A stretch of 64,000 bases of DNA from a virus (Duplodnaviria; Heunggongvirae; Uroviricota; Caudoviricetes): IMG/VR virus record IMGVR_UViG_2529292828_000009; one strand, written 5' to 3'. The number at the start of each line of letters is the position of its first letter. The stretch's first letter is position 1. Shown here piece after piece: positions 10,940-46,287 of this stretch. The notes below the pieces were generated by a model. That model ran no database searches, was not told the DNA's origin, and was given only the letters and a program-made list of their open reading frames with translations. Made by a program: the position numbers and the translations under genes.

Positions 10940-11500
10940 TTACCCATGCAGAACCTCCCGACAGGCGCTGGCGAGCAGATCCAGACGGTTAAACCAGCCA
11001 TTCAGATATTTCCCCTGCGAGGCACTGGATTTGATAATCCCTGCGTAATAGCGGGAACGACGCAGGAAGCACTGCAACAGCAGCCAGTCAGTATCGGCAC
11101 GCAGAACGGCTGCGCGTGTGTTTTTACCGACGATGCCATCATCATCAACACCTGCTGCCGCCTGGAGGATCTGAATCGCGCGTTTAACCCCGTGCTGAAC
11201 GGCAGCATCAAAAACGAATAAGGAAACGCCATCAGGCCATTCGTTACACTTTGCCGCCAGCCAGTAATCACGCCAGTAGATCTGCGCCGCCTGCTCGCGG
11301 GTTAAATCCTTAATGCGGGTATCAGGTTTTCCGTCACCGTTAACATCGGTTTTGCCATCAATAACGCCGTCGCGACGGTCAGAAATACCGTATTTCGTTT
11401 CGCCGCCACGGTCGGCAGGATCATTAACATAGCCACCTTCAACATCAGGGCGTATAACGAAATTCAGCGAATGAAGGAATGCAGGGGAAAACTCAGGCAT
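10940..11500 (-). CDS. Peptidoglycan hydrolase-like protein (GH108-type N-terminus)
   Basis: EGGYVNDPADRGGETKYGI motif near N-terminus. Confidence 0.55.
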   Translation of the reverse strand: MPEFSPAFLHSLNFVIRPDVEGGYVNDPADRGGETKYGISDRRDGVIDGKTDVNGDGKPDTRIKDLTREQAAQIYWRDYWLAAKCNEWPDGVSLFVFDAAVQHGVKRAIQILQAAAGVDDDGIVGKNTRAAVLRADTDWLLLQCFLRRSRYYAGIIKSSASQGKYLNGWFNRLDLLASACREVLHG

Positions 11501-15711: not shown

Positions 15712-16650
15712 TTAATTACGCAGCAGCGTTGAAATATCAACGTCCAGGTCTAATTCACGGAAAGCCTGACGCAGATAATCTTCGTTAACACGCTCACCTT
15801 TACCGTGAGCCGTCATGGCGGCAAGGCGAAGTGAATGATTCAGAATGCGAAGCGCACCTGGTTTCTGCGCAATCTGCTGTAATAACTCCAGTTCTTTTTC
15901 GCCGTTAATCTGCCAGGCATCCGCAATAGCTTTTACATCGGCTTTTTTGGTTTTATTAATTGCAGTACGCTTTGCAATACGGGAAAACAGACGGGCAAAT
16001 TCAACCGTTCTGTTACCCCCCGTCATATTTGAATAAACCCGGTGATTTCCCATCAGTACAAGGCCAATACGGGTTGATTCCTGTAACAGGCGGAGTTCTT
16101 CCAGAACTTCGGCACCAAGATGATCAGCTTCGTCGATGATAACCAGCCCCTGTGTACCTTCAAGGCGACGTCGCAGGGCGCGGGAGAGCGGCCCTTTACG
16201 GCGTGGTGCGTCATTCATTCCCAGCTCAAACGCCAGTTCAGTAAGACATTCCAAAACGCTAGCACAGGATGGCGTAATGGTGATCATCCAGACATTGTTA
16301 TTGGTGCGGCGATATTCACGGGCCGCTTCGGTTTTGCCCACACCAGGATTGCCACATACAACAGCAATACTTTCAGTCAGGCTGGCAAAACGCATACTTG
16401 TCCAGATTTGTTTTACCGTCTGCGTTTCCACAAAGCGGGGCGGTTCAGGTAGTTCTGCAACTGCATGATATTTTTCCAGCCAGCGTTGCAGCATTTGTGA
16501 AACACGCTCGTTATCCCCGTTGTACTTATCATTGATAAAACTACTGATAGTTCCGGTAGAAAGTCCGCTCTCAAGAGCAATTTGTTTAAAGGTGGTTTCT
16601 TCATTTTCTACAAGCGTGCGCAGTCCTGCGCGAATATCGGAAATATTCAT
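15712..16650 (-). CDS. B: Mu transposition ATPase MuB
   Basis: 312 aa; Walker A CGNPGVGKTEAA; N-terminal HTH. Confidence 0.9.
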   Translation of the reverse strand: MNISDIRAGLRTLVENEETTFKQIALESGLSTGTISSFINDKYNGDNERVSQMLQRWLEKYHAVAELPEPPRFVETQTVKQIWTSMRFASLTESIAVVCGNPGVGKTEAAREYRRTNNNVWMITITPSCASVLECLTELAFELGMNDAPRRKGPLSRALRRRLEGTQGLVIIDEADHLGAEVLEELRLLQESTRIGLVLMGNHRVYSNMTGGNRTVEFARLFSRIAKRTAINKTKKADVKAIADAWQINGEKELELLQQIAQKPGALRILNHSLRLAAMTAHGKGERVNEDYLRQAFRELDLDVDISTLLRN

Positions 16651-16688: not shown

Positions 16689-18680
16689 TTAAATGACTTT
16701 TTTACGTCTGTTCTGTTCCAGAATATCCAGTGAATGATTCAGATATTCATCACGATCAGTTTCATATTCATCATCGGCTTCCTGGTATTTCACCTGCACC
16801 GTGTTACCGGAAGGCCGGAAAATACCAACAACCCTTGATTCTGGTGCTGCTGGTTCGGCTATCTGCGGCAGCAGTTCAGCAACTTCCAGCGCGTCCATTT
16901 GTTTCTGCGCCTTAATGGCTGCTTTAGTTGCAGATTTCAGTTGTTTCTGGCGGCGGCGATATTCACGGCCTGCCGCTGCATCATTAAATGCAACAGGTGC
17001 CAGACATTCCGCTTCACAGATAAACCGACCGTCCAGGGTGTAACAATAAACCGTGCTGTGTAGCTGCTGCGGATCAAACCTGACCACAACTTTTTTCACG
17101 CCGGCATTCATTAATGCCATGTTGTAATAAACGTTTTTTGCGCCTTTAAGGGAGCCGCCAACTTTAAGCGTAAACTCGCCTTTGCGTGAAACGTTCACCG
17201 CCTCGGCAGGCAGTAACAGCATCCGTTTTTGTTCTTCGGTTGGCTTACGCACAATCGTTCTGGCGTATTCACGCTCGAAAACATCATCAAACGAGAGTTT
17301 GCCCCCGCACATTTCTGTTTCACGGCCTGTTCTGGCATTGAACATCGCCACACCTTCGGCAAGGGTTTTCAGAAACAGCTCTGCATCAACAGCGCGGTCG
17401 CCATAGTTATCAGGTTTTGCCTGCGGATTTGGCCCCGTATATGCGCCAGCCAGTGCCGGATGCTTATCAACGTATTCCTCAAGCCCACCAACACCGAAAG
17501 CACGTTCAACAGGTTTTGCCTGGCCCCAGCCTTTACCAGCAACAACGCTTGTCCAGTGCATTTTCGCACCCATCAGTAAAAACAATCCCTTTGGATCGTC
17601 TTCTTTCACCTTAAAGCGGTAGCGATTGGGCGCGCCTCCCGTCAGCCATTTATTCGCAGCACCACGGGTGTTATCAATGGTGATGTGAAAATCCTCCGGG
17701 ATACCGTAGCGAGTCACAACATCCATGAACGAGAGGCGAATTGAATCAATGTTCTCGCTCACATCGCAGCGCCAGCCCAGAATTTTTCGGGTTTTCACAT
17801 CCTGCCAGAACCATGTTTTCGGGCGGATCACATCACCGTTAAACCAGCGTACAAAGACGTTATGCAGATAACCGTCGCCGTTGATCCACTGCATGGCGTC
17901 CAGGTGTTCCACAGTTCGCTGCTGTGCCGGTATCAGATGCATCAGTGCATGTTCACCTTCACGACAGGCAACAACCATTGCCTCGTCCAGTTGCTGAATC
18001 CGGCGAAAGGCCGTGGCACGGGAGGGAATACTCCAGCCATGCTCGCGGGCTGCCAGTTCCAGACGCTCATAACATTTGCGGAAGGCGGGTTTTTCCGGTC
18101 GCAGATAATCTGCGATCAGAAACTGCCAGGCATCCTCGTCAAATTCACTTTTGTGAACGTTGCGACGGGATGCACCACGTCCATCAACAAGCGCAGCCGC
18201 CCAGTCAGGCTTCGCAAACTTCTGTACCTGGTAATACTTGTCCCGCAAAGTGGATGCGCTGACCTGGTAATGCCCTGCAACGGTCGCAAAAGCCGTTTTT
18301 GTTGAAATCCCCTGGTTCAGCATTTCGTCTGCAGCCTGAACCGCAGGCAACCATTTTTCAGCAAGTCTGCGCTGGGAATCGCTGGCGTTATCCCATTTGC
18401 TCCACAGTGCCTCACGATCATAATCATGGGCTTCCAGCGTGGGGCGGGCGATTTCAAAATACCCCAGGCTTGTTTCAATCTCTCCTTGTCTCAGCAATAA
18501 CGCCGCTTTCGCTTCAACAGGTAAAGAGTTCGCATTGTATTCAATTGCTTTACCACCTTTGACACCTGCTCTAGTGCGGTTTTGCCATCCTTGCTTTTTA
18601 GCAACATAAATCACCCCAGCCGATGTTTTCGGCAAACCAGGAAGATTCGCACACTCTTTCGGTGATACCCAAAGTTCCAT
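16689..18680 (-). CDS. A: Mu transposase MuA (DDE)
   Basis: 663 aa from [15 protein letters not shown]...; recognised as MuA. Confidence 0.9.
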
Positions 18681-18681: not shown

Positions 18682-18909
18682 TTATTCACCTGCTTGATAT
18701 CGGCTAGGCCAGATTACTTCCGGTTTAGTTTCTAAGGCGTTAGCAATAATCTGCTCACCCTTTGGCCAGTGTCGTTCTAGCGCATTAGCTAATGTAGTTG
18801 GCGCATAACCAAACTGCCGGGAAAGAGCTGATAAAGAGAGCTTTCTTTTCTTAAGTCCCGCAATCACATCCGCACGATGCCAATCACGGGCCTTTTCGTT
18901 GGAACACAT
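18682..18909 (-). CDS. ner: Mu Ner (negative regulator of early transcription)
   Basis: 75 aa [25 protein letters not shown]..., recognised as Mu Ner. Confidence 0.9.
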
Positions 18910-19078: not shown

Positions 19079-19669
19079 TTGAAAAGTAACTTTATAGAAA
19101 AGGGTGATACTGAAAAGTCAATTTGGTGTTCGCCGCAAGAAATTATGGCTGCTGATGGTATGCCTGGATCTGTTGCTGGTGTTCACTATCGAGCAAATGT
19201 TCAAGGCTGGACGAAGCGGAAAAAGGAAGGTGTCAAGGGGGGGAAAGCTGTTGAATACGATGTGATGTCGATGCCCACCAAAGAACGAGAGCAAGTTATT
19301 GCGCACTTGGGGTTATCCACCCCGGATACTGGTGCTCAAGCCAATGAGAAACAGGATTCTTCGGAACTGATAAACAAATTAACCACAACCTTAATCAATA
19401 TGATTGAAGAGCTGGAACCAGATGAAGCACGCAAGGCACTGAAACTTTTAAGTAAAGGGGGGTTGTTGGCGTTAATGCCTCTTGTATTTAATGAACAGAA
19501 ACTTTACAGCTTTATAGGATTTTCACAGCAAAGTATTCAGACGTTGATGATGCTAGATGCATTACCTGAAGAAAAACGCAAAGAGATTTTGTCAAAGTAT
19601 GGGATTCATGAACAGGAAAGTGTTGTAGTACCTTCACAGGAACCACAGGAGGTAAAAAAAGCCGTATAA
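19079..19669 (+). CDS. c: Mu repressor c
   Basis: 196 aa MKSNFIEKGDTEKSIWCSPQEIMAADGMPGS..., recognised as Mu Repc. Confidence 0.9.
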   Translation: MKSNFIEKGDTEKSIWCSPQEIMAADGMPGSVAGVHYRANVQGWTKRKKEGVKGGKAVEYDVMSMPTKEREQVIAHLGLSTPDTGAQANEKQDSSELINKLTTTLINMIEELEPDEARKALKLLSKGGLLALMPLVFNEQKLYSFIGFSQQSIQTLMMLDALPEEKRKEILSKYGIHEQESVVVPSQEPQEVKKAV

Positions 19670-20004
19670 CAACCATGAACCAGCTAAAACATACTTCACC
19701 TCACATAATCACACATGTAACATACCTAAACGGCATAAGCTGATTTGTGATATGAGTCATTTGGTGACAGCTTGGTTGTTATCGGTTTTGAACGTTTTTT
19801 GAAGCTGTTATTGAAATGATTTGCAGTGTTTTTGTTTTTCGTATTTTCAATGAAACAAAAGCAATTTTTTACTATCTTTCGCGTTTCATTGATTAACGAC
19901 TAAAATTTGCGCTACAGGCTTGCAAGCCCCACCAAATCTAATCCCATCAGATCCCGAATAATCCAATGTCCTCCCGGTTTTTTTCGTACTTCAAGTGAAT
20001 CAAT

Positions 20005-20118
20005 ACAGCCGTTATCTCTGACATAGCCGCGGATAGTAATCGTGCTATCCGCAGCCAAAGCGTGACTCACCGCCAGCCACAAAAAAGCGCACAGAAGATA
20101 AAAAGGTTTGTTTCTCAT
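20005..20118 (-). pseudogene. fimF: fimF 5-prime fragment (first ~38 codons) truncated by the Mu insertion
   Basis: ORF 19912-20121 translates MRNKPFYLLCAFLWLAVSHALAADSTITIRGYVRDNGC (FimF N-terminus) then runs into the Mu end. Confidence 0.85.
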
Positions 20119-20127
20119 CACGCCCCC

Positions 20128-22764
20128 TTAACGACATTCAGCTGATAGCTGGGTTAATAACTGCTGCTGACTCTCTGGTGGCAGTTGATAATTGGCGACA
20201 CAGTGAGCATTTTCCTCTTCTCCCCATTTCACCTGAACTTTTCCCGCTAAAGGCATTCCGCTGAGGTAAACCTGACCATTATCCGCAACAATGCCGCTAC
20301 TCTGGCTACTCTCTGATGTCACCATCGCCCCAAACGGCAGCGGCTTATTATTGTGGGTTAGCGTCATGAGCAGTTTTATCCCAACGCGCGCTTTAAACTC
20401 TGCTCGCACGATCGCCCCACGAGTGGGAACAACGTTAGCGACCGCGTTATCTAAATCGACGTTATCAGCCAGGGTATTGGTATCCAGCGCCACTCTATTT
20501 TCCCGATATTCAGTGGCATAAGGCAGCACGGCATAACCACGCCAGTCGGTACGCACCCCCGTCTGGTTTTCGACTTTTGCATCTTTTGCGCCAGGCGCTT
20601 TAACAAGCACCACTGTTTCGTTTAACGGCTGCCCCAGCGTTACGCCATTGGCATGAGCCAATACCCCACCGCTGACTCCGTAATAGAGCTGCTTAATATC
20701 ATCGCTATGGCTGTAACCGATATTGGCATTGCCGTAACCACCGCGATAATTCAGCGTGGCGTAGCCTGTACTTCCGCTATTACCATCACCTCCCCCGGCA
20801 TAGCCGGTTTGCACGCTATAGCTGAGGTTGTTGTCTTCCAGCAACGTACCGTATACACCAGCCAGATTGGTCATCCGACCGTTGAGATCGTGTGACATGC
20901 TGTAGCTGGCACTGGCATGTCGCCACTGAGATTTACTGTCAGAACGCAGCCAGTGGCTGAAAGGAATATTGACGTTAAGCGCTAACATCTGATCCCGTCC
21001 TTTTTGCCAGGCGTTTTTCGTCAGGCTATAGCTGAGCGTCCAGTTGATATCTTCGAATGCAGTATTTAAACCAGCCTGGAATTGCTCATCGACATTACTC
21101 GTTCCCCAATAAGTTTGATGGCTACCACTCAAATACAGTGTTGATGTGCGCCCGAGTTGCTGAGTAACGGTGAGCTGTAATTTCCCGCGTTTGTTATAAG
21201 CGAGGTTGTAATAGTCGGTGAATTTCGGCTTAACCTGAATAACTCCGTCCTGTGTTTCGATGTTGTAGCCATTCATTCGACTGTATGTTGTATCAGCGAA
21301 ATTAAAATATCCGCTGGTCGAATAACGGTAACCCACTAACTGAATATTCGTGCCTGACTCATTGAGCGATTTGTTATAGAGAAAACGCACCGATTGTCCG
21401 TCATGCTGACTGTCATCGGGAAGTGTGGAATTAGCCTGCGTCATATCCACAGACAGAGCGCCCAATGCCCCCATGTTTTTCCCGATACCGAAATTAAAAG
21501 CACGATAACGATCCGCCAGTTGCGTTCCACCATATATTGTCCAGCCAGCCGGAAGGCCGTGGAGTAATGTACTCTGGAAAAAGCGGGGTTTTTCCTGCTG
21601 CGCATTTCCACTACGGTATTCTCCTGCCGTAATGGAATAACGAGTATGCCCTTCACGTTGCAAAAGCGGGACTGACGAATAGGGTACGGTAAAAATCTGC
21701 GTGCTGCCGTCAGCCTCTTTGATCGTTACCTGCAAGTCACCACTATTACCTGCGGCATAGATATCGTTGATGGTAAAAGGCCCCGGTGGCACCGTACTAT
21801 TATAAATGTCATACCCATTTTGTTTAATAGTGACCTGTGCAGTACCACGAGCAATACCGTGGATCACCGGGGCAAATCCTCTTTGGCTATCGGGTAACAT
21901 ATTGTCATCTGAGGCCAATTGTGCGCCGCGAAAGTTAATACCATCGAAAATATCGCCCTGAGTATAACCATCACCCAGCGTCAGCCGGGAACGTAACGGT
22001 ATTATGTCTCGCTCAAGCCAGGTATTGATATGCTGCCATTTATTTTTGCTACCTGATGATCTGTCGCTACTGTTATAACTCCAGCTGGTATTGTCGCGTA
22101 AACGCCACGCACCAATATTTAACCCACTCTGTAGGTTTAAATATGCATAATGGTTGTTACCCCCAATCCGATTCTGTACACTATTTCCGCTGAAATTATA
22201 ATTGAGCAATCCGGCATTAATACCGGGATCCCATAACTCAGGAGGAATATAACCACGCGCGCGATTACTCATAAATGCCTGAGGGATCGTCAGGTTGAGT
22301 CGCTGCTGACCAACATCTAAATGCGCAGTAGCGTCATGGATCATGGAGGTTAATGGCACGCAGGCATCATCCGCCAGCAGATTCATACCGGAGACAGAAG
22401 CCGTATTCAGCCCCATACTGGCAAGTTGCGCGCGTGTCAGGCAGGGAACAATCCCTTGTTCGCTGTCGCCCGTATTAAATGTGACATCACGCGTTGCCAT
22501 ATAACCATTATTCAAATAGATATCGACACGATACGTCCCTGGCGGTAATTCTTGCCCATTTTCAAAACGCGATAAATCAGCCACAGCCTGGGGATCATCC
22601 GCTAAAAAGCGCGGATTAAAATAGAGTTCGGCAGATGACAAAGGTGTCTGTGCGGCAAAAGCACAGGCGACAAAGAGCCGGACAAAAAAACCAGCCAAAC
22701 GATGCTTACGAATATGCAAGCATTGTGTGTTTCGCTGGTAAAGTCTTAAATTCAGATATGACAT
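20128..22764 (-). CDS. fimD: Type 1 fimbrial usher FimD
   Basis: 878 aa, recognised FimD. Confidence 0.95.
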   Translation of the reverse strand: MSYLNLRLYQRNTQCLHIRKHRLAGFFVRLFVACAFAAQTPLSSAELYFNPRFLADDPQAVADLSRFENGQELPPGTYRVDIYLNNGYMATRDVTFNTGDSEQGIVPCLTRAQLASMGLNTASVSGMNLLADDACVPLTSMIHDATAHLDVGQQRLNLTIPQAFMSNRARGYIPPELWDPGINAGLLNYNFSGNSVQNRIGGNNHYAYLNLQSGLNIGAWRLRDNTSWSYNSSDRSSGSKNKWQHINTWLERDIIPLRSRLTLGDGYTQGDIFDGINFRGAQLASDDNMLPDSQRGFAPVIHGIARGTAQVTIKQNGYDIYNSTVPPGPFTINDIYAAGNSGDLQVTIKEADGSTQIFTVPYSSVPLLQREGHTRYSITAGEYRSGNAQQEKPRFFQSTLLHGLPAGWTIYGGTQLADRYRAFNFGIGKNMGALGALSVDMTQANSTLPDDSQHDGQSVRFLYNKSLNESGTNIQLVGYRYSTSGYFNFADTTYSRMNGYNIETQDGVIQVKPKFTDYYNLAYNKRGKLQLTVTQQLGRTSTLYLSGSHQTYWGTSNVDEQFQAGLNTAFEDINWTLSYSLTKNAWQKGRDQMLALNVNIPFSHWLRSDSKSQWRHASASYSMSHDLNGRMTNLAGVYGTLLEDNNLSYSVQTGYAGGGDGNSGSTGYATLNYRGGYGNANIGYSHSDDIKQLYYGVSGGVLAHANGVTLGQPLNETVVLVKAPGAKDAKVENQTGVRTDWRGYAVLPYATEYRENRVALDTNTLADNVDLDNAVANVVPTRGAIVRAEFKARVGIKLLMTLTHNNKPLPFGAMVTSESSQSSGIVADNGQVYLSGMPLAGKVQVKWGEEENAHCVANYQLPPESQQQLLTQLSAECR

Positions 22765-22830: not shown

Positions 22831-23556
22831 TTATTCCATTACGCCCGTCATTTTGGGGGTAAGTGCGCCATAATCATTTATTGTTCGGTAAGTAATATTG
22901 CTTCCCGCATCAGAAGGCAATTTAACCGTGCTTTCGCCCATTGGAGGCACCAAGGCATTTTCAAGAACCCGGGCTCCGGCATTCAACTCTGTTACCGTCA
23001 GGTAATAGGGTGTCGGGTTAATCAGCGTCAGAGAATTCGCGCTACGACGAAATCTTAATTTTTCTGCGGCCTGATCGGGTGGCAACGCTAATTTAGCCGG
23101 ACGATAGTACAGTTTAATGCGGCTGATAATTGCGAGCTGTAGCGTATTCTCAGTCAATTTTGATTTATCCATTGACGGAATCGCTTTAACGTTCATCCAG
23201 AATAAACTTTCCCGGTCCTGTGGCAATTGGTTATTTGTTGCATCAAGAATACGCAAGGTATTCTCTTTTTTTCCCTTCATCGCAAACAGAGGAGGCGTCA
23301 CGATAAAACGACCATCCTTTACACCATCGGCATTTTCCACCCATGATTGAATTAAATAGGTACTATTTTCATCATTATTTGTCACGGCAAGTTGCACTTG
23401 TTTTTGCCCTGCCGGATAAATTACGCGAGTCGCACCTAAGGCCACTCCCGCTTCAGCGCGTCCGGCAACCATCATTGCCATGAACATCAGGATACCTGCC
23501 AGCAAGCAGAATGTTATTTCCTGCGATTTCCTTACATTGACGTTTTTATTACTCAC
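22831..23556 (-). CDS. fimC: Type 1 fimbrial periplasmic chaperone FimC
   Basis: 241 aa, recognised FimC. Confidence 0.95.
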   Translation of the reverse strand: MSNKNVNVRKSQEITFCLLAGILMFMAMMVAGRAEAGVALGATRVIYPAGQKQVQLAVTNNDENSTYLIQSWVENADGVKDGRFIVTPPLFAMKGKKENTLRILDATNNQLPQDRESLFWMNVKAIPSMDKSKLTENTLQLAIISRIKLYYRPAKLALPPDQAAEKLRFRRSANSLTLINPTPYYLTVTELNAGARVLENALVPPMGESTVKLPSDAGSNITYRTINDYGALTPKMTGVME

Positions 23557-23592: not shown

Positions 23593-24132
23593 TTACTGAT
23601 AGGTTAAAGAGAACCAGGCCTGGGCATTGGCGATGCCGCCAGTAACCCGACGCCCGGTAGCACGATATTTGGCGATGAAATGTAGCGAAGTAGAGCCTGA
23701 GTAAAGCCGTTTCCAGTTTGCTGGAGGACGATTAATCGGTACGAGGTTTCCTTCATCATCAAACAACGCTACGCCAATATTGGTGGCTATCCCTGGCCCC
23801 TCTCCCACGGAAAGCACATCCGGATTTTTACCATCCGCGACACCGTGAAACGCCACACCCACACGTTCACTCACCACCGTGCTACATTCCCGTAAATGAA
23901 TAACAAAAGGCACCGGTGCGCTATCTTCCCCTACCGCATGAAACCGGTTACTGCTGATTTGCCCCATATTGACCGTCATTTGTTTATCACCGGCTTCAAT
24001 CCGGCAAGTTTCCGCAATAATGACGCCCTGAAATTGCATATTTCCGCCGGGCAGCGTGGTATTCCATTTATTTCCGGCCAGAGCAAACATTGGCAGCAAC
24101 GACGCTAATAGAAATAATCTCTTCCTTTTCAT
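23593..24132 (-). CDS. fimI: Fimbrin-like protein FimI
   Basis: Start taken at [13 protein letters not shown] (179 aa); the track ORF is extended upstream. Confidence 0.9.
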
Positions 24133-24196: not shown

Positions 24197-24745
24197 TTAT
24201 TGATACTGAACCTTGAAGGTCGCATCCGCATTAGCAGCACCCGGGGTTGCGGCACCGGTTGCAAAATAACGCGCCTGGAACGGAATGGTGTTGGTTCCGT
24301 TATTCAGGGTTGTTTCTGAACTAAATGTCGCACCGTCCAGCGCCAGCGCAGCACCCGTTCTGTCCAGGATCTGCACACCAACGTTTGTTGCGCTACCCGC
24401 AGCTGAACTCTGCAGAGCCAGAACGTTGGTATGACCCGCATCAATCGCCGTACCTAAAAAGGCAACAGCGGCTTTAGATGCAACATTGGTATCGCAATCA
24501 TTCAGCTGAATGTTAAAACCGACAGCAGAACTGGTCGCTCCTTCCTGTGCCAGCGATGCGGTACGAACCTGTCCTAACTGAACGGTTTGATCAACAGAGC
24601 CTGCATCAACTGCGCAAGCGGCGTTAACAACTTCCCCTTTAAAGTGAACGGTCCCACCATTTACCGTCGTGGCAGCGGCCAGAGCCGCTGTAGAACTGAG
24701 GGACAGAGCCGACAGAACAACGATTGCCAGAGTTTTAATTTTCAT
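24197..24745 (-). CDS. fimA: Type 1 fimbrial major subunit FimA
   Basis: 182 aa, recognised FimA. Confidence 0.95.
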
Positions 24746-24864: not shown

Positions 24865-25178
24865 TTGGGGCCATTTTGACTCATAGAGGAAAGCATCGCG
24901 GACAAACTTTTTCAGTTTATTTGTTGGCTTAATATTCTATTGTTATCTTTATTTATAGATGTTTATATTGCATGAGGTGGTTTTTGGAGAGAAGAATGAG
25001 GAAGATGCGTCGAGCCACAGAAACGTTAGCTTTACATATAGCGGAGGTGATGTGAAATTAATTTATAAGAGAAATAATTTACATATCAAACATTTAGATG
25101 CTTTTTGTCGTTTTTTAATATTTTTATGCTTGAGAAAAAATACGTAACTTATTTATGATATGGACAGTTTGGCCCCAA
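24865..25178. mobile_element. fimS invertible phase-variation switch (314 bp) bounded by 9-bp inverted repeats
   Basis: TTGGGGCCA at 24865-24873 and its complement TGGCCCCAA at 25170-25178. Confidence 0.9.
25130..25159 (+). promoter_or_regulatory. Sigma70-like promoter inside fimS (TTGAGA-18 bp-TATGAT), pointing toward fimE and away from fimA
   Basis: Hexamers read directly at 25130-25135 and 25154-25159 on the plus strand. Confidence 0.55.
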
Positions 25179-25225: not shown

Positions 25226-25822
25226 TCAAACCTCTTCTCTTTTTAATTTTTCGTTTATGAGATTATTTCTTTCCCATAATCCGGCAAAACGAGCAGCATT
25301 ACTGGCGGTATAACGCACAGTATGGCGAATATTTCGATGCCCGAGATAATCCTGAATTAAACGAGTATCTGCACCACGCTCCGCCAGTTCATAACCGCAA
25401 GCATGCCTTAACATATGAGGATGAGTCTGCGTTACGGTTCCAGCTTCAATACCGGCATCGCGAATAATGCGATAGGCCTGCTGGCGAGAAAGCCGACTCC
25501 CGCGGCGAGAAATAAATATAGCGTCAGTCCGGTCAGCGCCTTTCCAGTTAGCACGTTCCTGGGTCCATCGTTCCACGGCTTCACGCTCATCAAAACGTAA
25601 CGGGTGAACGGTAGAAAATCCGTTCTTCAGTCGGCGAATATTTATTCTACCTTCATTAAGGTCAAGGTCCTGATAATGCAGATCAAGCAGTTCACTAATA
25701 CGCATCCCATGCCGATATGCCAACAGAATAAGACAATAATCTCTGGCTCCCGTTGCCCCGTAACAAACCGCCTGCATCATGGCCTGAACTTCTTTACCGG
25801 TAAGATAACGACGTTTACTCAC
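25226..25822 (-). CDS. fimE: fim switch tyrosine recombinase FimE
   Basis: 198 aa, recognised FimE. Confidence 0.95.
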   Translation of the reverse strand: MSKRRYLTGKEVQAMMQAVCYGATGARDYCLILLAYRHGMRISELLDLHYQDLDLNEGRINIRRLKNGFSTVHPLRFDEREAVERWTQERANWKGADRTDAIFISRRGSRLSRQQAYRIIRDAGIEAGTVTQTHPHMLRHACGYELAERGADTRLIQDYLGHRNIRHTVRYTASNAARFAGLWERNNLINEKLKREEV

Positions 25823-26299: not shown

Positions 26300-26902
26300 C
26301 TATAAAACAGCGTGACGCTGTCGTCCTCTGGCTCTATCCCAGATGCCGTAAAAACGCCCTGCATTGCTGGCGGTATACCAGACAGTATGACGAATATTGC
26401 GATGCCCAAGATAATCCTGGATAAGTCGCGTATCTATTCCCATATTCGCCAAAGCAAAACCACACGAATGGCGTAACATGTGCGGATGAATCTCCAGTGA
26501 CAACCCGGCATTACCACCGGAAGTCGAGATAATATGGTAAAACTGTTGCCGAGAAAGCGGATTTCCCTTACGAGATAAAAATACCCACTCGCTCTCAGCA
26601 TGCGGGTACGAAGTACGGATACTCAACCAGTTTTTTAAAGCCTGAACTTCTTTGTTCAATAGCGGATGCGTTGTTGAAAAGCCTTTTTTTAATCGATGGA
26701 TATATATACACTTTGCCTTAAGATCAATATCCGAAATCCTCAATCGACAAATTTCACTCGCCCGGAAACCATGAATAAAACAAAGCAAAGTCAGACAATA
26801 ATTACGTGCTGCATGAGGCCCGGTATTTGCTGCTTTAAGGAGTGATTCGATTTCACTATGGGTCAGGAAGTTCCTTTTTTTGTTATCAGCCTTATTCTTC
26901 AT
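26300..26902 (-). CDS. fimB: fim switch tyrosine recombinase FimB
   Basis: Start at MKNKADNKKRNFLTHSE (200 aa). Confidence 0.95.
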   Translation of the reverse strand: MKNKADNKKRNFLTHSEIESLLKAANTGPHAARNYCLTLLCFIHGFRASEICRLRISDIDLKAKCIYIHRLKKGFSTTHPLLNKEVQALKNWLSIRTSYPHAESEWVFLSRKGNPLSRQQFYHIISTSGGNAGLSLEIHPHMLRHSCGFALANMGIDTRLIQDYLGHRNIRHTVWYTASNAGRFYGIWDRARGRQRHAVL

Positions 26903-33055: not shown

Positions 33056-35440
33056 TTATTTGATTGTTAGCTCATCACACTTGGGAAGCCAGTCTGCATT
33101 ACTTTCCTCTTTTAAAGTGAGGTTAGTCTGCATTCCCTGATTAGTTCGCCGCTTCTCATAATTTAGCCCGTATTCCTTCAGCATAACTGGTAGCCCTTTG
33201 CCAAACATTGTCAGGCTAAGGGTATTTTTAAAGCCATTAGCCTCCATGTATACGAGATAGGCATGGTAAAGGTACGTACGTGGCTGGCGCGGGACAATAT
33301 TGGCGTTCCCCATAAACATGCCGTTGGTGTCAGGTAATGCCTCAAGGTAGCCACAAAAATCAAATGCTGGATCAGCATCACGCTTGATGGTGAGAGCCTC
33401 ATCAGAATTCTGCTGCGACTGAAGCAATGTTCTGGCGCTCATCGGATCGCTGAAACGCTGCATGAGCTGACGAACAATCACAGCCAGTTCTCGTGCAATT
33501 TTATCTTTCAACTGCGGATCGCGTTCTTCCGGTGCTATCTGCTCAGGAAAATGCAGAATAACTCTCCTGCGGGACACACCACCACTGCGATCAGTGAAGC
33601 GCATAGGATTATTATTTACGGCCAAGATAACCGCCGGAATATGTGTTGAATAAGCATTCTGATATTTGGGGTCCACAGATACTGCATCGCCACCAGTTAT
33701 AGCCTTAAGCCCGGCGCCGTCGCCGCTCCACTTCTCCTGATCAGGCAGGCGAATAAGAGAAAAACCTATCAGAGCCGCACGTTCTCGCGGGGACTCCAGC
33801 GTTTCAATGGTCGCAGAGGTGGCGTTATCCTCTCCAGCAAGCATGGTCGCAATTTCAGCCAGAATACTTTTGCCACTTCCACCAGGGCCAGTCACTTCCA
33901 GAAAGAGCTGCCAGTCATAACGGTTCGCCAGCACCATAAATAACGCTGCAAGAATAATGTCGCGTTTTGCTGGCTTGTGTCCGGCGGCCCGGTCCAACCA
34001 ACGCCAGAATGCCGGGGCATGAGTTTCAAGCGTTTCCCCCTTTACCGGTGGCGTGAAATCGACTTCACACAGGGTACGCAGCCAGTTCTCTTTACAGTGC
34101 GGACTAAAAAGCCCTGTTCGCGTATCGAGAACGCCATTACGAAAACCAATCAGATGACGTGACGGATTTTGCTGCTGCGGAACAATTAACTTTAATGTTT
34201 CCACCAGTGAGGCAATTTTTCCTGAGGAAAACGGTGCCCCGAGGCGCTGGAAAAGGGCTGCGACATCTCGGGCAAAATCTGACTGAGAAATAACTTTCCA
34301 CGCTCCAGACTCGTAGCGGGATAAAAGCTGCCCGTTCGGATCAACCGCCAGTGCATCCCTGTAATGCTCCCGAACCCTCTGAGCTTTTTCGCTGACACTC
34401 ATCGCTGTGAATTCTGCTTCACTCATTGTGTCGAAAGGACTGGCGTTATGTGGCTTCAAAGCCTCAAGAATTGCCTTCCGGGTGGATTCCTCTCCGTATT
34501 GGGTAAGCGCATCATTCCAGTCACCAAAAACCGGTGGCAGCACAATGTCACACTGACTCGCTTTTGCAGCAGTTTCAGCCCTGTTCTGGCCTGAACCATT
34601 CAGATCGCGGTCCGCTGCAATAATTAACTGATATCCAGGATACTTATTATGGGCAACGCTGCTCAGAGAAAGAAAGTTGACCGACGAAAATGCCACCATG
34701 ACGGCTTCTCCTGTCAAATAATGAATGGTAAGCGCCGTGGCGTAACCTTCCGTAATCCAAATCCTTCTTACAGAACTCCCGCCCCCTTCTATCAGATGAT
34801 AGGCCTCCTTAACCTGACCTCCTTTAAGAAAACACTTGCTACCATTGCTACTGATAAGCTGAATATTCACCAGCTCCCCGTCAGCGTTATAGAGTGGGAC
34901 GATCAAATCACCGGGGCGGAACATCACACCACCGGCCTTATGAGCTGAAGTCAGCTCATGGCAAATATGCTCCGGGAAACCTTTATGTGTAAGATAAGTG
35001 TTTCCGGCAGATTCACGCGAGGCTTGCAGCAGTCGCGCGGCAAGTGCTGCCGCTGCATCTTTCCCGCTATCGGTATCGGCGGTTAACGTCCTGACCTCGG
35101 AATTAACTATAGACAGATCATGTGTCAGTCCATGTATCCTGTCAGCTGCTTCACTGATATCCACATTCAGTGCCCTGGTGACAAGCGCTAAACCATCCCC
35201 GGCTCCGCACTGATTGCAGAACCATGTTCCGCGTCCTTCCTGATCGTCGAAGCGAAAACGATCTTTACCGCCACAGACCGGGCAAGGCTGATGGCGATTT
35301 TTCAATATATTCACGCCCAGCGCTGGCAGAATCTGAGCCCAGTGACCGCGGGCAGCCTTCACGGCCTGACTGACTTTCATTCCTGACATGACGCAGTTCT
35401 CCCTCAGTGTAAAACCGGCTTTTTGATGTGACGGACGCAT
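33056..35440 (-). CDS. P4 alpha-like primase / helicase
   Basis: N-terminal zinc-binding CPVCGG...CNQCG, central Toprim-like region, C-terminal Walker A GPGGSGKS; true start probably at MSGMKVSQ. Confidence 0.8.
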
Positions 35441-35727
35441 AACTCATCCATTACGGCTATTCCGAGCTGGGAGAGTGCGGGACAGGACATTAGAGGGCCG
35501 TATTCCATCAGGTCTGAAAGCAGGGCGCAGGCGATTTCCATGCCTTTTGTTTGCCCGTGCTGTCGCAGATAAAATCCTTCAAGCTCACGGGCAATAGCGG
35601 TTTCAATTTCATCCAGAGTGAGCTGCAGATGGCGGTTTTGCTGATAGCAGGCACTCAACCAGGCGCAGGCTACCGCGCGGCGATACAACGCTACCCGAAG
35701 TGAAAGGGAAAGAGTGCGTGATTTCAT
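35404..35727 (-). CDS. P4-like hypothetical protein upstream of primase
   Basis: 107 aa ORF, position. Confidence 0.3.
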
Positions 35728-35987
35728 TGCACCACCTCCATGTTCATGAGGTCATCCTGGCAACGCTGTACCACGCCATCAAGCTGCTCTGTCATCAGAT
35801 AAATCAGGGAAACCAGTTGTTCACATTGAGCACTGGCAGGTTTTTCGTAGCAATCCTGAAGAACAGCCATTCCAGTGACAAACTCTCCCACGTTACGAAG
35901 ATGCTTCAGGCGGAGAATATCGTCATAAGAGATTGCGGCGTGATTCATTAGATCACCTCCCGGACAGGCAGGCGAGCAGCAAGACAA
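35724..35987 (-). CDS. P4-like hypothetical protein
   Basis: 87 aa ORF, position. Confidence 0.3.
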
Positions 35988-36139
35988 AGCACATACTCAT
36001 GGACCAGTGAAAGACGTGCATGATGCTCATTGCTGGCGATGATACGCAGCATACTGATACGTGGTTTACGTTCTGCACGACGAACGGCGGCAAAAACAAA
36101 TATAAATTGAGGATGTGACGGGGCGAGGATCGTAGCCAT

Positions 36140-36410
36140 AAGGGCAACCTCCAATAAGTAGCGGTAAATGCCACCACCGGAGTTCCTACGCTCATGGGTG
36201 GTGACCCGAACGGGGGTAGGAATACCGGCCTTATTGGAAACCGGCCAGCCCGAAGGCTGCCCCGCCCGGACCACCATTATCTGAAAGGGGCTAAGGTATA
36301 AGCACCGCAGCCCGAAAAATGGGTGTGCCTGAGCAACGACGTAAAAAAAGACGCACGGCGCGTCTGGTGTCGCCAATAAGTAACTCGGGTTCCTACGCCC
36401 GGCAGCCGAT
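36140..36410 (-). ncRNA. Candidate structured RNA / P4-type RNA immunity region (direct repeats flanking a complementary element)
   Basis: CCAATAAGTA...GTTCCTACGC at 36151-36191 and again at 36373-36400; complementary GGCCTTATTGG at 36227-36237; GC-rich, no convincing ORF. Confidence 0.35.
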
Positions 36411-36492
36411 TTTGCGGCAGCGGGAAAACTATACCTGGAAAAGATATCAGGACGCAAGCCAGAAAAAAGGAGATGAGACTGCAAAGCAAGTT

Positions 36493-36753
36493 TCACGCAT
36501 GGCCTCCTTGCTCGCGGGCAGCAATTCGCGCCGCCATCCATGCACTGACCTCCGACTGTACCCAGGCCACATTTTTTCCACCCAGGGATATCTGCTGCGG
36601 GAAGGCATCGCGGCTGATAAGGTCGTAGATGGTTGAACGGGATAGCCCGCAAAGGTGCATCACTTCAGGTAATCGTATGAAGCGCTCCTGCTGAGCCGGA
36701 ACCGGGAGCACCGGAGCAGCTGGTGCCGGGGTGGAAACGGAAATACTATTCAT
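36493..36753 (-). CDS. AlpA-family phage transcriptional regulator / excisionase-like
   Basis: [25 protein letters not shown]. Confidence 0.75.
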
Positions 36754-37299
36754 CTGGCTACCTCTCTAATATGTTTACAACAGTCCGGGCAATTCCATGC
36801 GGATTCAGGTAGCTCCTTATTATGTTTATATAAGCGGCTCGCGCATGCTTTATTTATTTTGTGTGAAATGTTGATTTCTCAAAAAATAAAACAGCTAAAA
36901 ACCGTATGAAACGAACAAAAACAAACAATTCCTTTATGGAATATAATAAGGAGCATCAATAATAAAAAAGTCTATTACACTAGGCAGGATCACAGCTCAA
37001 ATCTGAACCAGCCCATATCATTCAGGGCTTTACATCATAAGCACTAAGACAACACCTGATTAATAAAAGAGCCAAAAACGGCCAAAAATAAACAGCTCAC
37101 CATATGTATCAATAAATCCGATGATTAAAGAAATTAAATTACCATCTTACTTCCGCATGTATCCGAATGTGTTTAATGAACATCAGACAAATTCATTTTT
37201 ATGAATATTTTCCTGAAATGCAACTGAGTGCAGGGAGGTTGAATGTTCAATTATTAAACAGATATAAGACATCTTTTATTCTTTACATAGAATATGTAT

Positions 37300-37503
37300 T
37301 GAATACTGGTGAATATTGGTGAGGAGAAAAGATCCAGTAATAAACTGAAATAAATATCGCGACTTATATGAAAAAGAAATATATGTTTAATTTTATCTCT
37401 GTGAACAGTCATGAACAGTAGATGATCACTTTAATTAAAACACTACACCACTTAACCACATGTATTTACTATATTTTTATTGAAGTGAACAGTAGTGAAT
37501 AGT
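37300..37503. repeat. Clusters of tandem 9-10 bp repeats (GTGAACAGT / GTGAATAYTGG) upstream of the sid-like operon
   Basis: gtgaacagt at 37401-37409, atgaacagt 37411-37419, gtgaacagt 37485-37493, gtgaatagt 37495-37503; gaatactggt gaatattggt at 37301-37320. Confidence 0.5.
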
Positions 37504-37625
37504 ATGTATTAAAGGAAGCGTGTAGATCAGACATGACACCTTTCTCTGGCTAGCCAGAACAAGGTCATTGTTCAGTCACTGACACAATCCTCCTCGGTAG
37601 TGCGCTTGTATGGACCCCGGCACAA

Positions 37626-38411
37626 TTGACACAACAACAAAACACTACCGGAGCAGCCATGACAACTGTTAACCAGATCTCTGATGCAAACATTACCCCC
37701 ACCCTCCCGCCGAAAATTCGCGAAGCGGTGGAAAAAGTTAAGGCAGCAAAAGCTGTCTGGCAGGAAGAACGGCGAAAACAAACCGAAGCTGCTGCAATGA
37801 CTGAAACTATCCGTAAACGTCAGGAAGATACAAAAACGGAGACGCAGGCGCTTAATGATGAATGGCGAAACCTGTTTCGTGAGAATCAGGGGAATATGAC
37901 GCCACGAATGAAAAAACTGCGGGCAGAAATCGCCCTCGGACGCGAAACACTAGATGAGTTCGAAGATTTGCTGGCTGCTCAGGCTGCAGAAAATGAATTC
38001 CTGCCATGGAAAACTGCGGATGCTGCAAACCGCTACATCAGCGAACATAATCACCTGATTGAAACTCATGCAGTGTGGCTCTGGAATGAGTTTATGAAGG
38101 AACACGGCCAGAAACTTATTCAGATCCTTGGACTGCTGAAAATGACTCTGGGCCGAAGCGCATCTTCTGTTATCGGTGTAGTTCATACCGTAAACGACCC
38201 CGAAAGTGTGCTGAAGCAATTTATCAGCGAGCAACTCACCACTCCGGCACTGTTCTGTAACGTATCTTCAACGGATGATATTGCCCTGCCGGGGATCAGC
38301 ATTTATGCGGACGATAAAGCCATACAGGATGCCAGACAATCACCCAGCCCTGCAGCACGTTCCCGGATGCTTAAACAGCGTGACATGGCTAAAGGGGGCG
38401 AGAAGGAATGA
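37626..38411 (+). CDS. P4 Sid-like protein (putative external scaffold / capsid size determination)
   Basis: 261 aa coiled-coil-rich protein first in the psu-containing operon; assignment by position. Confidence 0.4.
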   Translation: MTQQQNTTGAAMTTVNQISDANITPTLPPKIREAVEKVKAAKAVWQEERRKQTEAAAMTETIRKRQEDTKTETQALNDEWRNLFRENQGNMTPRMKKLRAEIALGRETLDEFEDLLAAQAAENEFLPWKTADAANRYISEHNHLIETHAVWLWNEFMKEHGQKLIQILGLLKMTLGRSASSVIGVVHTVNDPESVLKQFISEQLTTPALFCNVSSTDDIALPGISIYADDKAIQDARQSPSPAARSRMLKQRDMAKGGEKE

Positions 38412-38962
38412 ATACCGGAACCATTACTCAGGAAGCTCTCAACGATTACCGCGCGGCAATAAAAAGCTGGCTGACACTACGTAATGTGCAAAGTACCAGC
38501 CAGCTTCGTCTGGCTGCTTTGCTGGATACTGAAGAAAAACCCGCAGCATATGCCAGCCAACTTGAGGATCTTCGTGAGCGTCTTGCACTCCTCGAATGGC
38601 AGATTAACTGTGCCGCCCGGGATGGTCTTTATGCTCACCAGATTGTGCTGGAAAGCTGTGTTACAAGCGCAACTGAAAACTTCATGAGCGAGCATGGTGA
38701 TGCACTCACTGACGCTCTGGCTCCTTTTCTTTGTGCACCATACGGGCTTGAGGCGGCAATGAAAATATTACGAACCGCTGTAGCCCGACAAACGGAAGTC
38801 CGTACTCCGGTAATTTCAGCAGCATATAAGAGCATTATCGACGAAACCGGATTAACGGTGGATGCATCAATGCGCGCTGATGCTTCAGCCAGTTTCACCC
38901 CGGCACAACATAAAGTTTTCCTGGCCCGCCTTAACCGACTTAATGAAAAAGGAGTGTGCTGA
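38408..38962 (+). CDS. P4 Psu-like protein (polarity suppression / capsid decoration)
   Basis: 184 aa; HGDALTDALAP and SFTPAQ motifs resemble P4 Psu as I recall it. Confidence 0.55.
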   Translation: MNTGTITQEALNDYRAAIKSWLTLRNVQSTSQLRLAALLDTEEKPAAYASQLEDLRERLALLEWQINCAARDGLYAHQIVLESCVTSATENFMSEHGDALTDALAPFLCAPYGLEAAMKILRTAVARQTEVRTPVISAAYKSIIDETGLTVDASMRADASASFTPAQHKVFLARLNRLNEKGVC

Positions 38963-38963
38963 T

Positions 38964-39236
38964 ATGGCCCTGAAGTGTCCTGAATGTGGCGCGGTCGCTC
39001 ACGCCAGAACCAGCGCCTATGAAGCTCCGTCGGTTAAACGCTCATGGTATCAGTGCCAGAATCTGGAATGTTCCTGCACATTTACCGCACTGGAAAGCGT
39101 GGATACGATAATTATGAAGCCTCGGTGCAATGAACAGGAATCAGACAAAGCAAAAATACCGGAAAAACAACAGCAAACTCTCAATCGCTATGGCTCCGCG
39201 TCAAAGCTGTCAAACCGTCAGCAAATTCCTGTCTGA
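38964..39236 (+). CDS. Ogr/Delta-family zinc-finger late transcription activator
   Basis: MALKCPECG...YQCQNLECSCTF; start at 38964 with AAAAAGGAG upstream. Confidence 0.75.
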   Translation: MALKCPECGAVAHARTSAYEAPSVKRSWYQCQNLECSCTFTALESVDTIIMKPRCNEQESDKAKIPEKQQQTLNRYGSASKLSNRQQIPV

Positions 39237-39842
39237 TTAGCAAAATACGACCACGAAGTCCCGGTCCAGTACCGGGATTTTTTACGCCTTTTCCCTGGCT
39301 GGCCTGAGAGCGTATGAGTGCATATCTATGGCGCATGAAAACGCATGAGTCTCATGCGCCATTTTTGACGCGAAAGCCCTTGTGTGGTGGCTTCTGAGAC
39401 GATTTACGGGGTGCATGAAAACCAGTCTGTTAAGCGAAGCTGGCAGGCGGGCGGGGCTGCTCGCGCTAAGGGAGAAAATAGCAAACTCAGCCGCGCAGGC
39501 GGTGACAATGATTGACGAGATACTGGCTGGCAGTTGCTGAAATCTCCGCAATGATTCAAGAACTGCAGTGTATCGATGCAGCACACGTAAACTGAGCGGC
39601 GCTACGGGTAATATTTATAGATTTGTCATCCTTAGTGAGCATGGTTCTCACTCTTGTAACCTCTACCTGTACAAGATATCGTAAGACCTCAGATCAAACA
39701 TGCACGTGTATTAAAGGTGGGCAAGCGTGGCGGGAAGATAATTGTGCGCACTGTAGTCAAAGATAGGGATTGTGATTACTTTTTCTTCCAGCCGTGGTGT
39801 AGTAAATTATTGGGAACAAACTCTTAATGACATCAATGGATA

Positions 39843-41141
39843 ATGATTATGACTACAAATCCGGACGGATACATCTCATTTTTAAAACCCGGTAGTAACG
39901 ACTGGAAAGCATTAGATAGTAAATCGTTTATTTATTGGCGAGACTACATAACGAATGAAAGTTTAGAAGAGTCAGGAGATTCTATTTCTCCAGCACAATC
40001 TCTTACTGATGGTGAAAAGAAGGAGTTGAAAGACAATCAGGCATATATAAACGAACTATTACTAAAATCATTACAATTCCCAAATCTTGCATTCTTCGCT
40101 GGGAGTGGTACTTCGCTTGGGGACGTTGGAGGACCAAGCATGTGGGATCTCTGGAAGTGTGCAATGTGGAGTGAATCTTCTATAAACGAGGATGGTCAAT
40201 TAAAACCTGATGCTCAAATTGTTTGTGATAAAGTAAAATATAAAGAGCGAGAGTATCCTAACATAGAACACTTTCTTTCTAATTGTGAAGCATATTTAGC
40301 ATTTCATGATGATGAAGAAGTGTTGAATTTTTTAAATAAAGTTAAAACAATTATTTTAGACAAATGTCGCTCATTTATTGATGATGGCAACTGTGATCTT
40401 TCAGCTTACATCAATTTATTACAAAAAATGGGGAGGAGGAGAGTCAGAGATCCTAGACTAAAAGTTTTCACAACTAACTATGATTTAGCCTTTGAAACAG
40501 CTGCTTCTGAATTAGGAATGATGGTAGTTGATGGTCTTTCATATACAGGAGTTCGCAGATTCGATGGTAAATATTTTAACTACGATGTTGTTAAAAGAGA
40601 TGAAAACGAGCATGAGTTTGTAGAGGGCGTATTCCAGTTATTTAAACTCCACGGTTCTGTAAGTTGGATAAGAAAGGATGGGCAAATATATGAATCCAGC
40701 CAACCAACAGCAACAAACGCATGTCTAATATATCCAGCGAAAGGTAAATATCAGCAAGCCTTTATTCAACCTCACTTAGAATTACTTTCAAGATTGTTAG
40801 ATTTCTTGAGAAAAAGAAATAACTGTTTAGTTATATCTGGATTTGGTTTCAATGATGACCATCTTTCTGAACCAATTTACTCAGCAATAAAATCCAATCC
40901 AAGCATGAGGTTGATTATAGTAGATTTCAAATGTGCAACTCATATTCGGAATAAAGGGGGGGACGGTTCTAGTAAATATTGGGATTTACTAAAACAACTC
41001 TCACTATCAGGTTATGACATTCACTTCATAAATGCATCTTTCAGTGATTTTGTTAAATTAGTTCCCAATCTTAAAGCATTAACCCCAGCAGAACAGTTGG
41101 CTAAGGTAATAAAACAAGTAGGAGTTAACAATCAATTATGA
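39843..41141 (+). CDS. SIR2-family (sirtuin-like NADase) protein, partner of HerA
   Basis: FFAGSGTS Rossmann loop, VFTTNYD, KLHGS motifs; 432 aa. Confidence 0.7.
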   Translation: MIMTTNPDGYISFLKPGSNDWKALDSKSFIYWRDYITNESLEESGDSISPAQSLTDGEKKELKDNQAYINELLLKSLQFPNLAFFAGSGTSLGDVGGPSMWDLWKCAMWSESSINEDGQLKPDAQIVCDKVKYKEREYPNIEHFLSNCEAYLAFHDDEEVLNFLNKVKTIILDKCRSFIDDGNCDLSAYINLLQKMGRRRVRDPRLKVFTTNYDLAFETAASELGMMVVDGLSYTGVRRFDGKYFNYDVVKRDENEHEFVEGVFQLFKLHGSVSWIRKDGQIYESSQPTATNACLIYPAKGKYQQAFIQPHLELLSRLLDFLRKRNNCLVISGFGFNDDHLSEPIYSAIKSNPSMRLIIVDFKCATHIRNKGGDGSSKYWDLLKQLSLSGYDIHFINASFSDFVKLVPNLKALTPAEQLAKVIKQVGVNNQL

Positions 41142-42859: not shown

Positions 42860-42897
42860 TTAGTAGGGTCTTTGACCCTACTTTAAAATTTTTAAAG

Positions 42898-44169: not shown

Positions 44170-44320
44170 TTCTAATCGAAGTCAAGATGCCCCTAATTAT
44201 GCCCCCAATGGCATCCGGATTTCAACGGACAATCTCGGACGACTCCGGACATAAGAATCACTGTACTCATTGAATTATAAGGAACAATTGGACTTTCTCG
44301 GATGATCTTGGAAGTGCTAA

Positions 44321-44344
44321 TGGTGCCGAAGGCCGGACTCGAAC
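44321..44344. repeat. 24-bp direct repeat of the leuX 3-prime end (att junction between the two islands)
   Basis: TGGTGCCGAAGGCCGGACTCGAAC identical to 63575-63598. Confidence 0.85.
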
Positions 44345-44691
44345 ATCGCAACTATCCTTATGATCTTTAGTAATTAAAGCAATCTACATTGTCGATGATA
44401 CCATCATTGATACCATCAGACCCGATTGATGATAATCGAACAGTAATAAAATATGACTAAACAATTTATGCTTCAACATAAGATTGAATGCTTTGATCTA
44501 CCATTTTAATGCAGTGGAAAAATTTTTAACACAATACTTAAGAAAAATAATTTCATATAAAAACTACATTTCATTTCATATAGTTAACACACCAAAAACA
44601 ACTGTATATAAACCCAGTAAAAAATGGTAGAATCACTATTGTGTTCAATTGTTGAACATTTATAATACATTTGTCGGATAGGGGGGTGTTT

Positions 44692-46223: not shown

Positions 46224-46237
46224 AATTTTAAGTAGAA

Positions 46238-46278
46238 GTGACAAATATTATAAACCATTCTTGAAATATATTTGTCAC
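46238..46278. terminator. Bidirectional hairpin between convergent genes
   Basis: 11-bp perfect inverted repeat GTGACAAATAT (46238-46248) / ATATTTGTCAC (46268-46278). Confidence 0.5.
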
Positions 46279-46287
46279 TATTACTAA

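Follow-up and report, generated by a model that had tools for sequence, protein, structure and literature searches.

Organization of the fim locus in E. coli 2780750

The 64,000-nucleotide stretch analyzed here (IMG/VR record IMGVR_UViG_2529292828_000009, hereafter the window) joins the left 20 kb of a bacteriophage Mu prophage to the type 1 fimbrial (fim) operon of Escherichia coli, with the point of contact inside fimF. The window is byte-identical to bases 11465-75464 of AQDV01000058.1 (75,464 bp), a contig of the E. coli 2780750 assembly GCA_000355555.2. Across the window and the first 13 kb of a second contig of that assembly, AQDV01000001.1 (this 13-kb locus is called L016), the order fimB-fimE-fimS-fimA-fimI-fimC-fimD-fimF-fimG-fimH is found and is 100% identical to E. 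coli D6 save for Mu (Table 1). On the promoter side, fimB, fimE, fimS, fimA, fimI, fimC and fimD are contiguous; an initial annotation, made from the window's sequence, was thus right to keep fimA-I-C-D attached to the switch.

Table 1. Features of the window (W) and of the first 13 kb of AQDV01000001.1 (L016).
Feature	Position	Strand	Description
Mu prophage, left 20 kb	W 1-20007	-	Mu nt 1 to ~20566, c end through gp35; continues past window base 1
GH108 + PG_binding_3 gene	W 10940-11500	-	186 aa, muramidase-like; between mor and gp18, where Mu has membrane protein gp19
MuB ATPase	W 15712-16650	-	312 aa, 100% identical; Phage-MuB_C
MuA transposase	W 16689-18680	-	663 aa, 98.9% identical, full length; HTH_Tnp_Mu_1/2, DDE_2, Mu-transpos_C
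ner	W 18682-18909	-	100% identical to Mu Ner
repressor c	W 19079-19669	+	196 aa, 98.5% identical to Mu c; R47, G9, D10
Mu attL	W 19836-20007	-	MuA-binding sites L1 (19981-20002) and L3 (19836-19857); consensus sites at Mu nt 6-27 and 151-172
chimeric 68-aa ORF	W 19912-20118	-	FimF 1-37, then 31 residues from Mu attL; annotated EMW44899.1
left copy of 5-bp target-site duplication	W 20008-20012	-	ACGGC (plus strand gccgt)
fimF 5' remnant	W 20008-20118	-	codons 1-37, signal peptide and N-terminal donor strand; identical to D6 fimF
fimD usher	W 20128-22764	-	878 aa, intact, 100% identical to D6; directly upstream of broken fimF
fimC	W 22831-23556	-	gene call converted to window coordinates, and D6 annotation
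fimI	W 23593-24132	-	gene call converted to window coordinates, and D6 annotation
fimA	W 24197-24745	-	gene call converted to window coordinates, and D6 annotation
fimS invertible promoter element	W 24865-25178		314 bp between 9-bp inverted repeats (TTGGGGCCA)
fimE recombinase	W 25226-25822	-	
fimB recombinase	W 26300-26902	-	
SIR2	W 39849-41141		defense pair with HerA; hotspot between psu/delta and int
HerA	W 41138-42859		defense pair with SIR2
P4-like integrase	W 42898-44169		
Kiwa KwaA/KwaB	W 44671-46223		leuX island
8xMP membrane protein	W 46288-46959		leuX island
type IIG restriction-methylase	W 47012-50290		leuX island
MobA-type relaxase	W 52431-53621		leuX island
ORF adjoining the Phage_integrase pair	W 55854-57728		no Pfam match; related islands are annotated with three tyrosine recombinases
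two adjacent Phage_integrase-domain ORFs	W 57725-60224		leuX island
Arm-type integrase	W 62135-63385		leuX island
DUF6387			leuX island
gin	L016 974-1567		99% vs Mu
mom	L016, to 2484		99.6% vs Mu
Mu right end	L016, ends 2599		...GTTTTTCGTGCGCCGCTTCA
right ACGGC copy	L016 2600-2604		
fimF 3' part	L016 2605-3024		codon 38 onward, TGTAGTGTGGCCGCTGAATC...
fimG	L016 3037-3540		167 aa
fimH	L016 3560-4462		300 aa

The Mu left end lies within fimF

The initial annotation had placed a Mu end inside fimF, and inspection of window positions 19600-20400 confirmed this. Read on the minus strand, the left junction is ...GGCTATGTCAGAGATAACGGC/TGTATTGATTCACTTGAAGTACGAAAAAAACCGGGAGG..., with the Mu left end beginning after the slash. 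The phage sequence stops at window base 20007 in the canonical terminus of Mu, 5'-TGTATTGATTCAC, whose terminal 5'-TG occupies 20007-20006; on its far side, positions 20008-20140 cover the beginning of fimF and the last part of fimD and are identical to the intact locus of D6. The reverse complement of 19979-20007, previously recognized as the Mu left end, lies in a longer stretch (19668-20007) that differs from nt 1-340 of the Mu reference genome AF083977 at a single position. The alignment of 1-20007 to the reference that had been suggested as a check was also performed, and it spans AF083977 nt 1-20566 at 97.7% identity and 96% coverage.

A minus-strand open reading frame (ORF) crosses the junction at 19912-20121. 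It opens with a GTG, and an ATG at 20118 gives a product of 68 amino acids. This product reads FimF 1-38, as had been stated, but only codons 1-37 are fimF DNA: codon 38 (TGT, Cys) consists of the first three bases of Mu. The basis of this discrepancy is a four-base coincidence, in that the Mu bases TGTA (window 20004-20007) are also the fimF bases that follow the insertion point (L016 2605-2608). As a result, intact fimF aligns 4 nt further than the actual junction, and Cys38 is kept in the chimeric product. No Pfam family was found for the 68-residue product, which arose as a by-product of the insertion. The signal peptide of FimF is preserved in it, as is the N-terminal donor strand, ADSTITIRGYVRDNG; in the pilus, the FimF donor strand completes the fold of FimG.

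The reciprocal junction and the target-site duplication

The remainder of fimF and fimG-fimH had been expected beyond the other end of the prophage, where a Mu right end would meet the 3' portion of fimF at a 5-bp duplication. All of these were located on AQDV01000001.1 (322,609 bp). This contig was reached via the ORF predicted for a Mu-right-end/fimF junction, by exact look-up of its 137-aa version (MAAESTNF...). A 145-aa version starting at a GTG in the Mu right end was absent from the protein collection, and a homology search with the predicted ORF returned only full-length FimF cluster representatives. A scan of contigs for the expected right-junction pattern, GTGCGCCGCTTCA-N5-TGTAGTGTGGCCGCTGAATC, gave no match in a collection that holds one genome per species and does not include E. 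coli 2780750; the pattern proved correct once AQDV01000001.1 was read.

The order on L016 is the C-terminal part of S', gin, com, mom, the Mu right end, ACGGC, the 3' part of fimF, fimG, fimH, gntP and uxuA. The right end itself reads ...CGCCGCTTCA, and across the junction the sequence is ...GTGCGCCGCTTCA, ACGGC and TGTAGTGTGGCC, followed by the rest of fimF. The pentamer ACGGC therefore flanks Mu at both ends as a 5-bp target-site duplication. The Mu target consensus is 5'-N-Y-S-R-N-3' (PMC2602771), which ACGGC fits. Removal of Mu and one copy of ACGGC in silico yields a 531-nt fimF identical to that of D6, and from the duplication as far as uxuA, 4,339 bp match D6 without a single difference.

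The same 137-aa 'FimF' product has also been called in unrelated assemblies without a Mu split, including two loci and some short contigs; most of these are contig-end fragments. In the case of GCA_000249275.2, approximately 120 bp separate fimD from the 137-aa call. Such calls would stem from alternative start predictions or from other lesions in fimF.

Gene content and cis-acting sites of the prophage

In addition to the c-ner-A-B module, window positions 1-20007 hold the remaining Mu early, lysis and head genes, and AQDV01000058.1 extends a further 11,464 bp into Mu past the window, through the tail genes. All reference Mu proteins in the recovered DNA (nt 1 to ~30 kb, plus gin-com-mom) are full length and free of frameshifts. 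The proteins from lys through gp47 are full length and colinear in the 30 kb recovered, and the head and tail proteins are mostly 93-100% identical to those of Mu; com is 100% identical. The cis-acting sites are similarly conserved. At the right end, attR matches Mu exactly over its final 78 nt and three consensus MuA sites were identified, the operator/enhancer region differs at 4 of 171 nt, and 176 of 180 positions match in the region of the central strong gyrase site.

Compared with the reference record, the repressor carries the substitutions N9G, N10D and Q47R. We take Q47 to be the thermo-inducible laboratory allele cts62 and R47 to be the wild-type residue, in which case the mutant residue is in the reference record and the wild-type one in this prophage. 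Genes gp13, gp14 and gp54 are absent, gp12 encodes 160 aa (176 in Mu), and the place of gp19 is taken by a 186-aa Glyco_hydro_108 (GH108) plus PG_binding_3 protein. These regions are presumably non-essential. The GH108 gene is additional to the normal signal-arrest-release (SAR) endolysin; it shares 100% identity with its counterparts in the Yersinia phages vB_YpM_5 and vB_YpM_6, and 72% with that of a Klebsiella phage.

The interior of the invertible G segment falls in the gap between the two contigs, and only the C-terminal part of S' is seen, on AQDV01000001.1. By calculation, AQDV01000058.1 ends ~20 nt past the left boundary of the G segment (reference nt 31966), the last 1,498 bp being calculated and not read. 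Contigs ending at the left G repeat would be consistent with short-read assembly being interrupted by inversion of G or by the 34-bp inverted repeat. As side observations, AQDV01000001.1 begins within the G segment, close to the S'/U' boundary, and in four draft assemblies with this Mu variant the contigs stop at closely similar positions, 1470-1598 bp past the loci read, at what was calculated to be the left inverted repeat of G. Since draft assemblies of Mu lysogens break here, the halves of a Mu-split gene come to lie on separate contigs. Annotation can then easily mistake such a gene for two proteins, hypothetical or partial.

Taken with the intact ends, this gene content suggests an apparently complete and competent wild Mu. 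The initial annotation had described the phage as active or recently active; the intact genes and ends, together with the strain specificity described below, are consistent with that description.

Relationship to known phages

The element resembles Mu (Muvirus mu; AF083977/NC_000929) in its termini and MuA-binding sites, in its c-ner-A-B module (98.5-100% protein identity), in its colinear head and tail genes, and in the gin-com-mom genes at the right end. It also resembles Mu in having inactivated a gene by insertion with a 5-bp target duplication of the N-Y-S-R-N type; Mu integrates almost at random, and inactivation of the gene that is hit is said to be the original Mu 'mutator' phenotype, reported by Taylor in 1963. 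The differences from Mu are the 97.7% nucleotide identity over 96% of the left 20 kb, the three missing genes, the shorter gp12, the GH108 protein in place of gp19, the three repressor residues (R47, G9 and D10 as opposed to Q47, N9 and N10), and divergence in gp6, gp7, gp18, gp38 and L (77-90% identity). Identity multiplied by coverage against Muvirus mu is ~94% for the left 20 kb, the portion compared; the species criterion of the International Committee on Taxonomy of Viruses is at least 95% over the whole genome.

Two Mu-like records in the phage collection, vB_YpM_5 and vB_YpM_6 (host Y. pestis EV76-CN), share 98.9% identity with 83% of the Mu DNA in the window, including the GH108 gene. 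However, their alignments begin at query position 3233, and the leftmost 3.2 kb, which hold c, ner and the greater part of A, were unmatched at the stringency used. D108 and Shigella phage SfMu are likewise Mu-type transposable phages and are 96.6-97.1% identical from A onward, but their alignments begin at query position ~1510, with no match to the c/ner immunity region. The phage in the window has Mu immunity and not D108 immunity, with c divergent from ner and the operators/enhancer lying between the two genes.

Mu prophages with an identical repressor occur in many other assemblies. Among ten such loci, eight host positions are represented, always with the same terminus, which indicates that this Mu lineage is mobile in natural E. 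coli. Wild lineages of Mu are thus in circulation among E. coli, with insertions at many places in the chromosome. In these ten loci, from assemblies and metagenomes (left ends at locus position 3929), Mu adjoins dapF, an alpha-amylase gene, sodB, ETF (fix-like) genes, katG, a gene near ydiH, trmA and araA/araD. For one of these prophages the flanking pentamer is again ACGGC.

Strain specificity and copy number

The fimF-Mu junction was found in none of the 5,426 complete RefSeq E. coli genomes. The chimeric 68-aa ORF forms a cluster of one and is on record in two assemblies, GCA_000355555.2 and Logan SRR446747. In the latter, contig 154 (SRR446747_154), produced by a different assembler, carries the same chimeric ORF and the same neighboring gene order. 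The 24 kb of host flank at 20008-44000 match D6, and several other isolates from animals and humans, at 100% identity. Flanks without any divergence from uninserted relatives, combined with a unique junction and ORF, indicate that the insertion is strain-specific and evolutionarily recent.

AQDV01000058.1 passes unbroken from unique host DNA ~31.5 kb into Mu, and AQDV01000001.1 does likewise from the other side. Multiple Mu copies with differing flanks would be expected to break an assembly at the Mu ends, and these contigs therefore argue for a single-copy insertion in E. coli 2780750. The gp35 gene is present on only one contig of the assembly. A literature search returned no description of a Mu insertion in fimF or of the strain 2780750 prophage. 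The fimF::Mu allele thus appears to be undescribed in the literature searched, while the element and the kind of event are fully known.

Alternative explanations for the insertion

An assembly chimera of unrelated contigs is a natural concern with a short-read draft in which the prophage is split over at least two contigs. However, the junction breaks at the exact Mu terminus and is matched in the same assembly by a reciprocal junction with the same pentamer, and neither is compatible with a chance joining. In-silico excision restores fimF to the base, and the Logan contig reproduces the chimeric ORF and gene order. The reciprocal junctions sharing ACGGC exclude a chimera, and with the second assembler's contig this candidate was regarded as effectively refuted; its probability is close to nil. 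An insertion present in only part of the culture, following replicative transposition from another primary Mu site, would be in keeping with the way Mu transposes. Against this, the contigs run unbroken from unique host DNA into Mu on both sides, which is unexpected with two or more copies at comparable depth, and gp35 occurs on a single contig. A partial insertion is accordingly very unlikely.

The origin and state of the phage also need to be weighed. Laboratory Mu derivatives (Mu cts62, mini-Mu or Mud) are found in engineered strains of the collection, for example S17-1, MFDpir, KO11FL and BW2952, and the prophage might in principle represent such a derivative or contamination from such a strain. 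This is highly improbable given an identity to laboratory Mu of only 97.7%, the absence of gp13, gp14 and gp54, the GH108 gene in place of gp19, the host flank shared in full with animal isolates, and the presence of the same variant in many wild assemblies. The repressor likewise has R47 and not the Q47 that we take to mark the sequenced cts62 phage; with 2.3% divergence from the reference, this points to a natural phage. A fixed, defective remnant of an old insertion is somewhat harder to dismiss, although we consider it unlikely. The G segment was not recovered, sequence cannot show activity, and the non-essential genes gp13, gp14 and gp54 are missing. On the other hand, the recovered essential genes contain no frameshift or truncation, and the ends, the enhancer and the gyrase site are conserved. 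The stretch lacking gp13, gp14 and gp54 and bearing GH108 also matches vB_YpM_5/6, at 98.9% across 83% of the 20 kb. Moreover, a single strain carries the insertion, with flanks that have not diverged from uninserted relatives.

Proposed event and predicted effect on fimbriation

Together, these results favor, with a probability of about 0.93, transposition of an apparently complete, wild-type Mu into fimF of E. coli 2780750, which split the fim operon and would be predicted to cause loss of fimbriation. In this event, MuA-catalyzed transposition into codon 36/37 of fimF duplicated the target pentamer ACGGC. It left fimB, fimE, fimS, fimA, fimI, fimC, fimD and the 37-codon fimF stub to the left of Mu. 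The other 139 fimF codons, with intact fimG and fimH, lie ~37 kb off past the Mu right end, unlinked from the fimA promoter. Mu is oriented left to right along fim transcription.

Functional FimF would not be made from this arrangement, as the stub encodes the signal peptide and donor strand only. Mu insertions are classically strongly polar, and the Mu late genes are silent in a lysogen; for both of these reasons fimG and fimH are expected to be silent or nearly so. The FimC-FimH complex is the first to engage and activate the FimD usher (PMC11459180). Given this requirement, loss of FimH expression would leave the cells with few type 1 fimbriae or none, and mannose-sensitive adhesion would be absent. 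We infer from these steps that fimbriation and mannose binding are lost. The prophage itself would still be able to transpose and form phage.

Several points weigh against parts of this interpretation. Russell and Orndorff are said to have found in 1992 that fimF and fimG lesions alone change the number and length of pili and do not abolish binding, and the predicted adhesion defect thus requires a polar effect on fimH. Some expression of fimG and fimH could arise from an unmapped internal promoter; a simple scan from mom to fimH found no sigma-70-like promoter, and several terminator-like hairpins were seen in the Mu right end by the same kind of scan. The assembled fimS orientation is that of the MG1655 reference, with a promoter-like TTGAGA-N18-TATGAT facing fimE, and from this promoter-like sequence we read the phase as OFF. 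In that phase, the sequenced culture would be mostly non-fimbriate whatever the insertion. The interior of the G segment lies outside the recovered contigs, so the completeness of the prophage as judged here does not extend to the tail fibers. Finally, both induction of the prophage and the fimbrial phenotype are predictions from sequence.

There are precedents for natural E. coli lineages in which the type 1 fimbrial operon has been inactivated, whether through mutation or by a mobile element, among them the fimS deletion of O157:H7 and insertion sequence insertions. The lesion described here is of that class but differs in its agent, a 37-kb transposable phage, in its clean 5-bp duplication and in being a strain-specific event. 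Reversion of fimF::Mu would require precise excision, an event that is very rare for Mu. The insertion explains why E. coli 2780750 should lack functional type 1 fimbriae, which bears on colonization, adhesion and FimH typing. It is a clean natural case of Mu acting as a mutator outside the laboratory and, being a Mu insertion of a known kind, leaves knowledge of Mu and of fimbriae unchanged.

Two further consequences could follow from the geometry of the insertion, and we consider it very doubtful that either holds. Because Mu is co-oriented with fim transcription and a simple scan found no intrinsic terminator from the fimF stub to ner, transcripts from the fimA promoter in phase-ON cells could cross attL, running antisense through c and in the sense direction into ner-A-B. 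Mu derepression would then be coupled to fim phase variation, and ON cells would preferentially induce Mu and be lost. Rho-dependent termination after the stop codon of the chimeric ORF is the more likely outcome. The chimeric peptide, with its signal peptide and donor strand, might also be exported and cap any FimG that is made.

Satellite prophage and leuX island

The host portion of the window contains two other mobile elements. A P4-like satellite prophage at 33056-44169 encodes an alpha primase-helicase, an Icd-like product, sid, psu and ogr/delta, and is 100% identical to D6. The second is an additional island at ~44300-63660, for which no complete RefSeq E. coli genome gives at least 80% coverage; the best covers 69% at 91% identity. 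This island adjoins the tRNA-Leu(CAA) gene (leuX) at 63575-63659. In D6, leuX adjoins the P4-like integrase, whereas here ~19 kb of extra island lie between the two.

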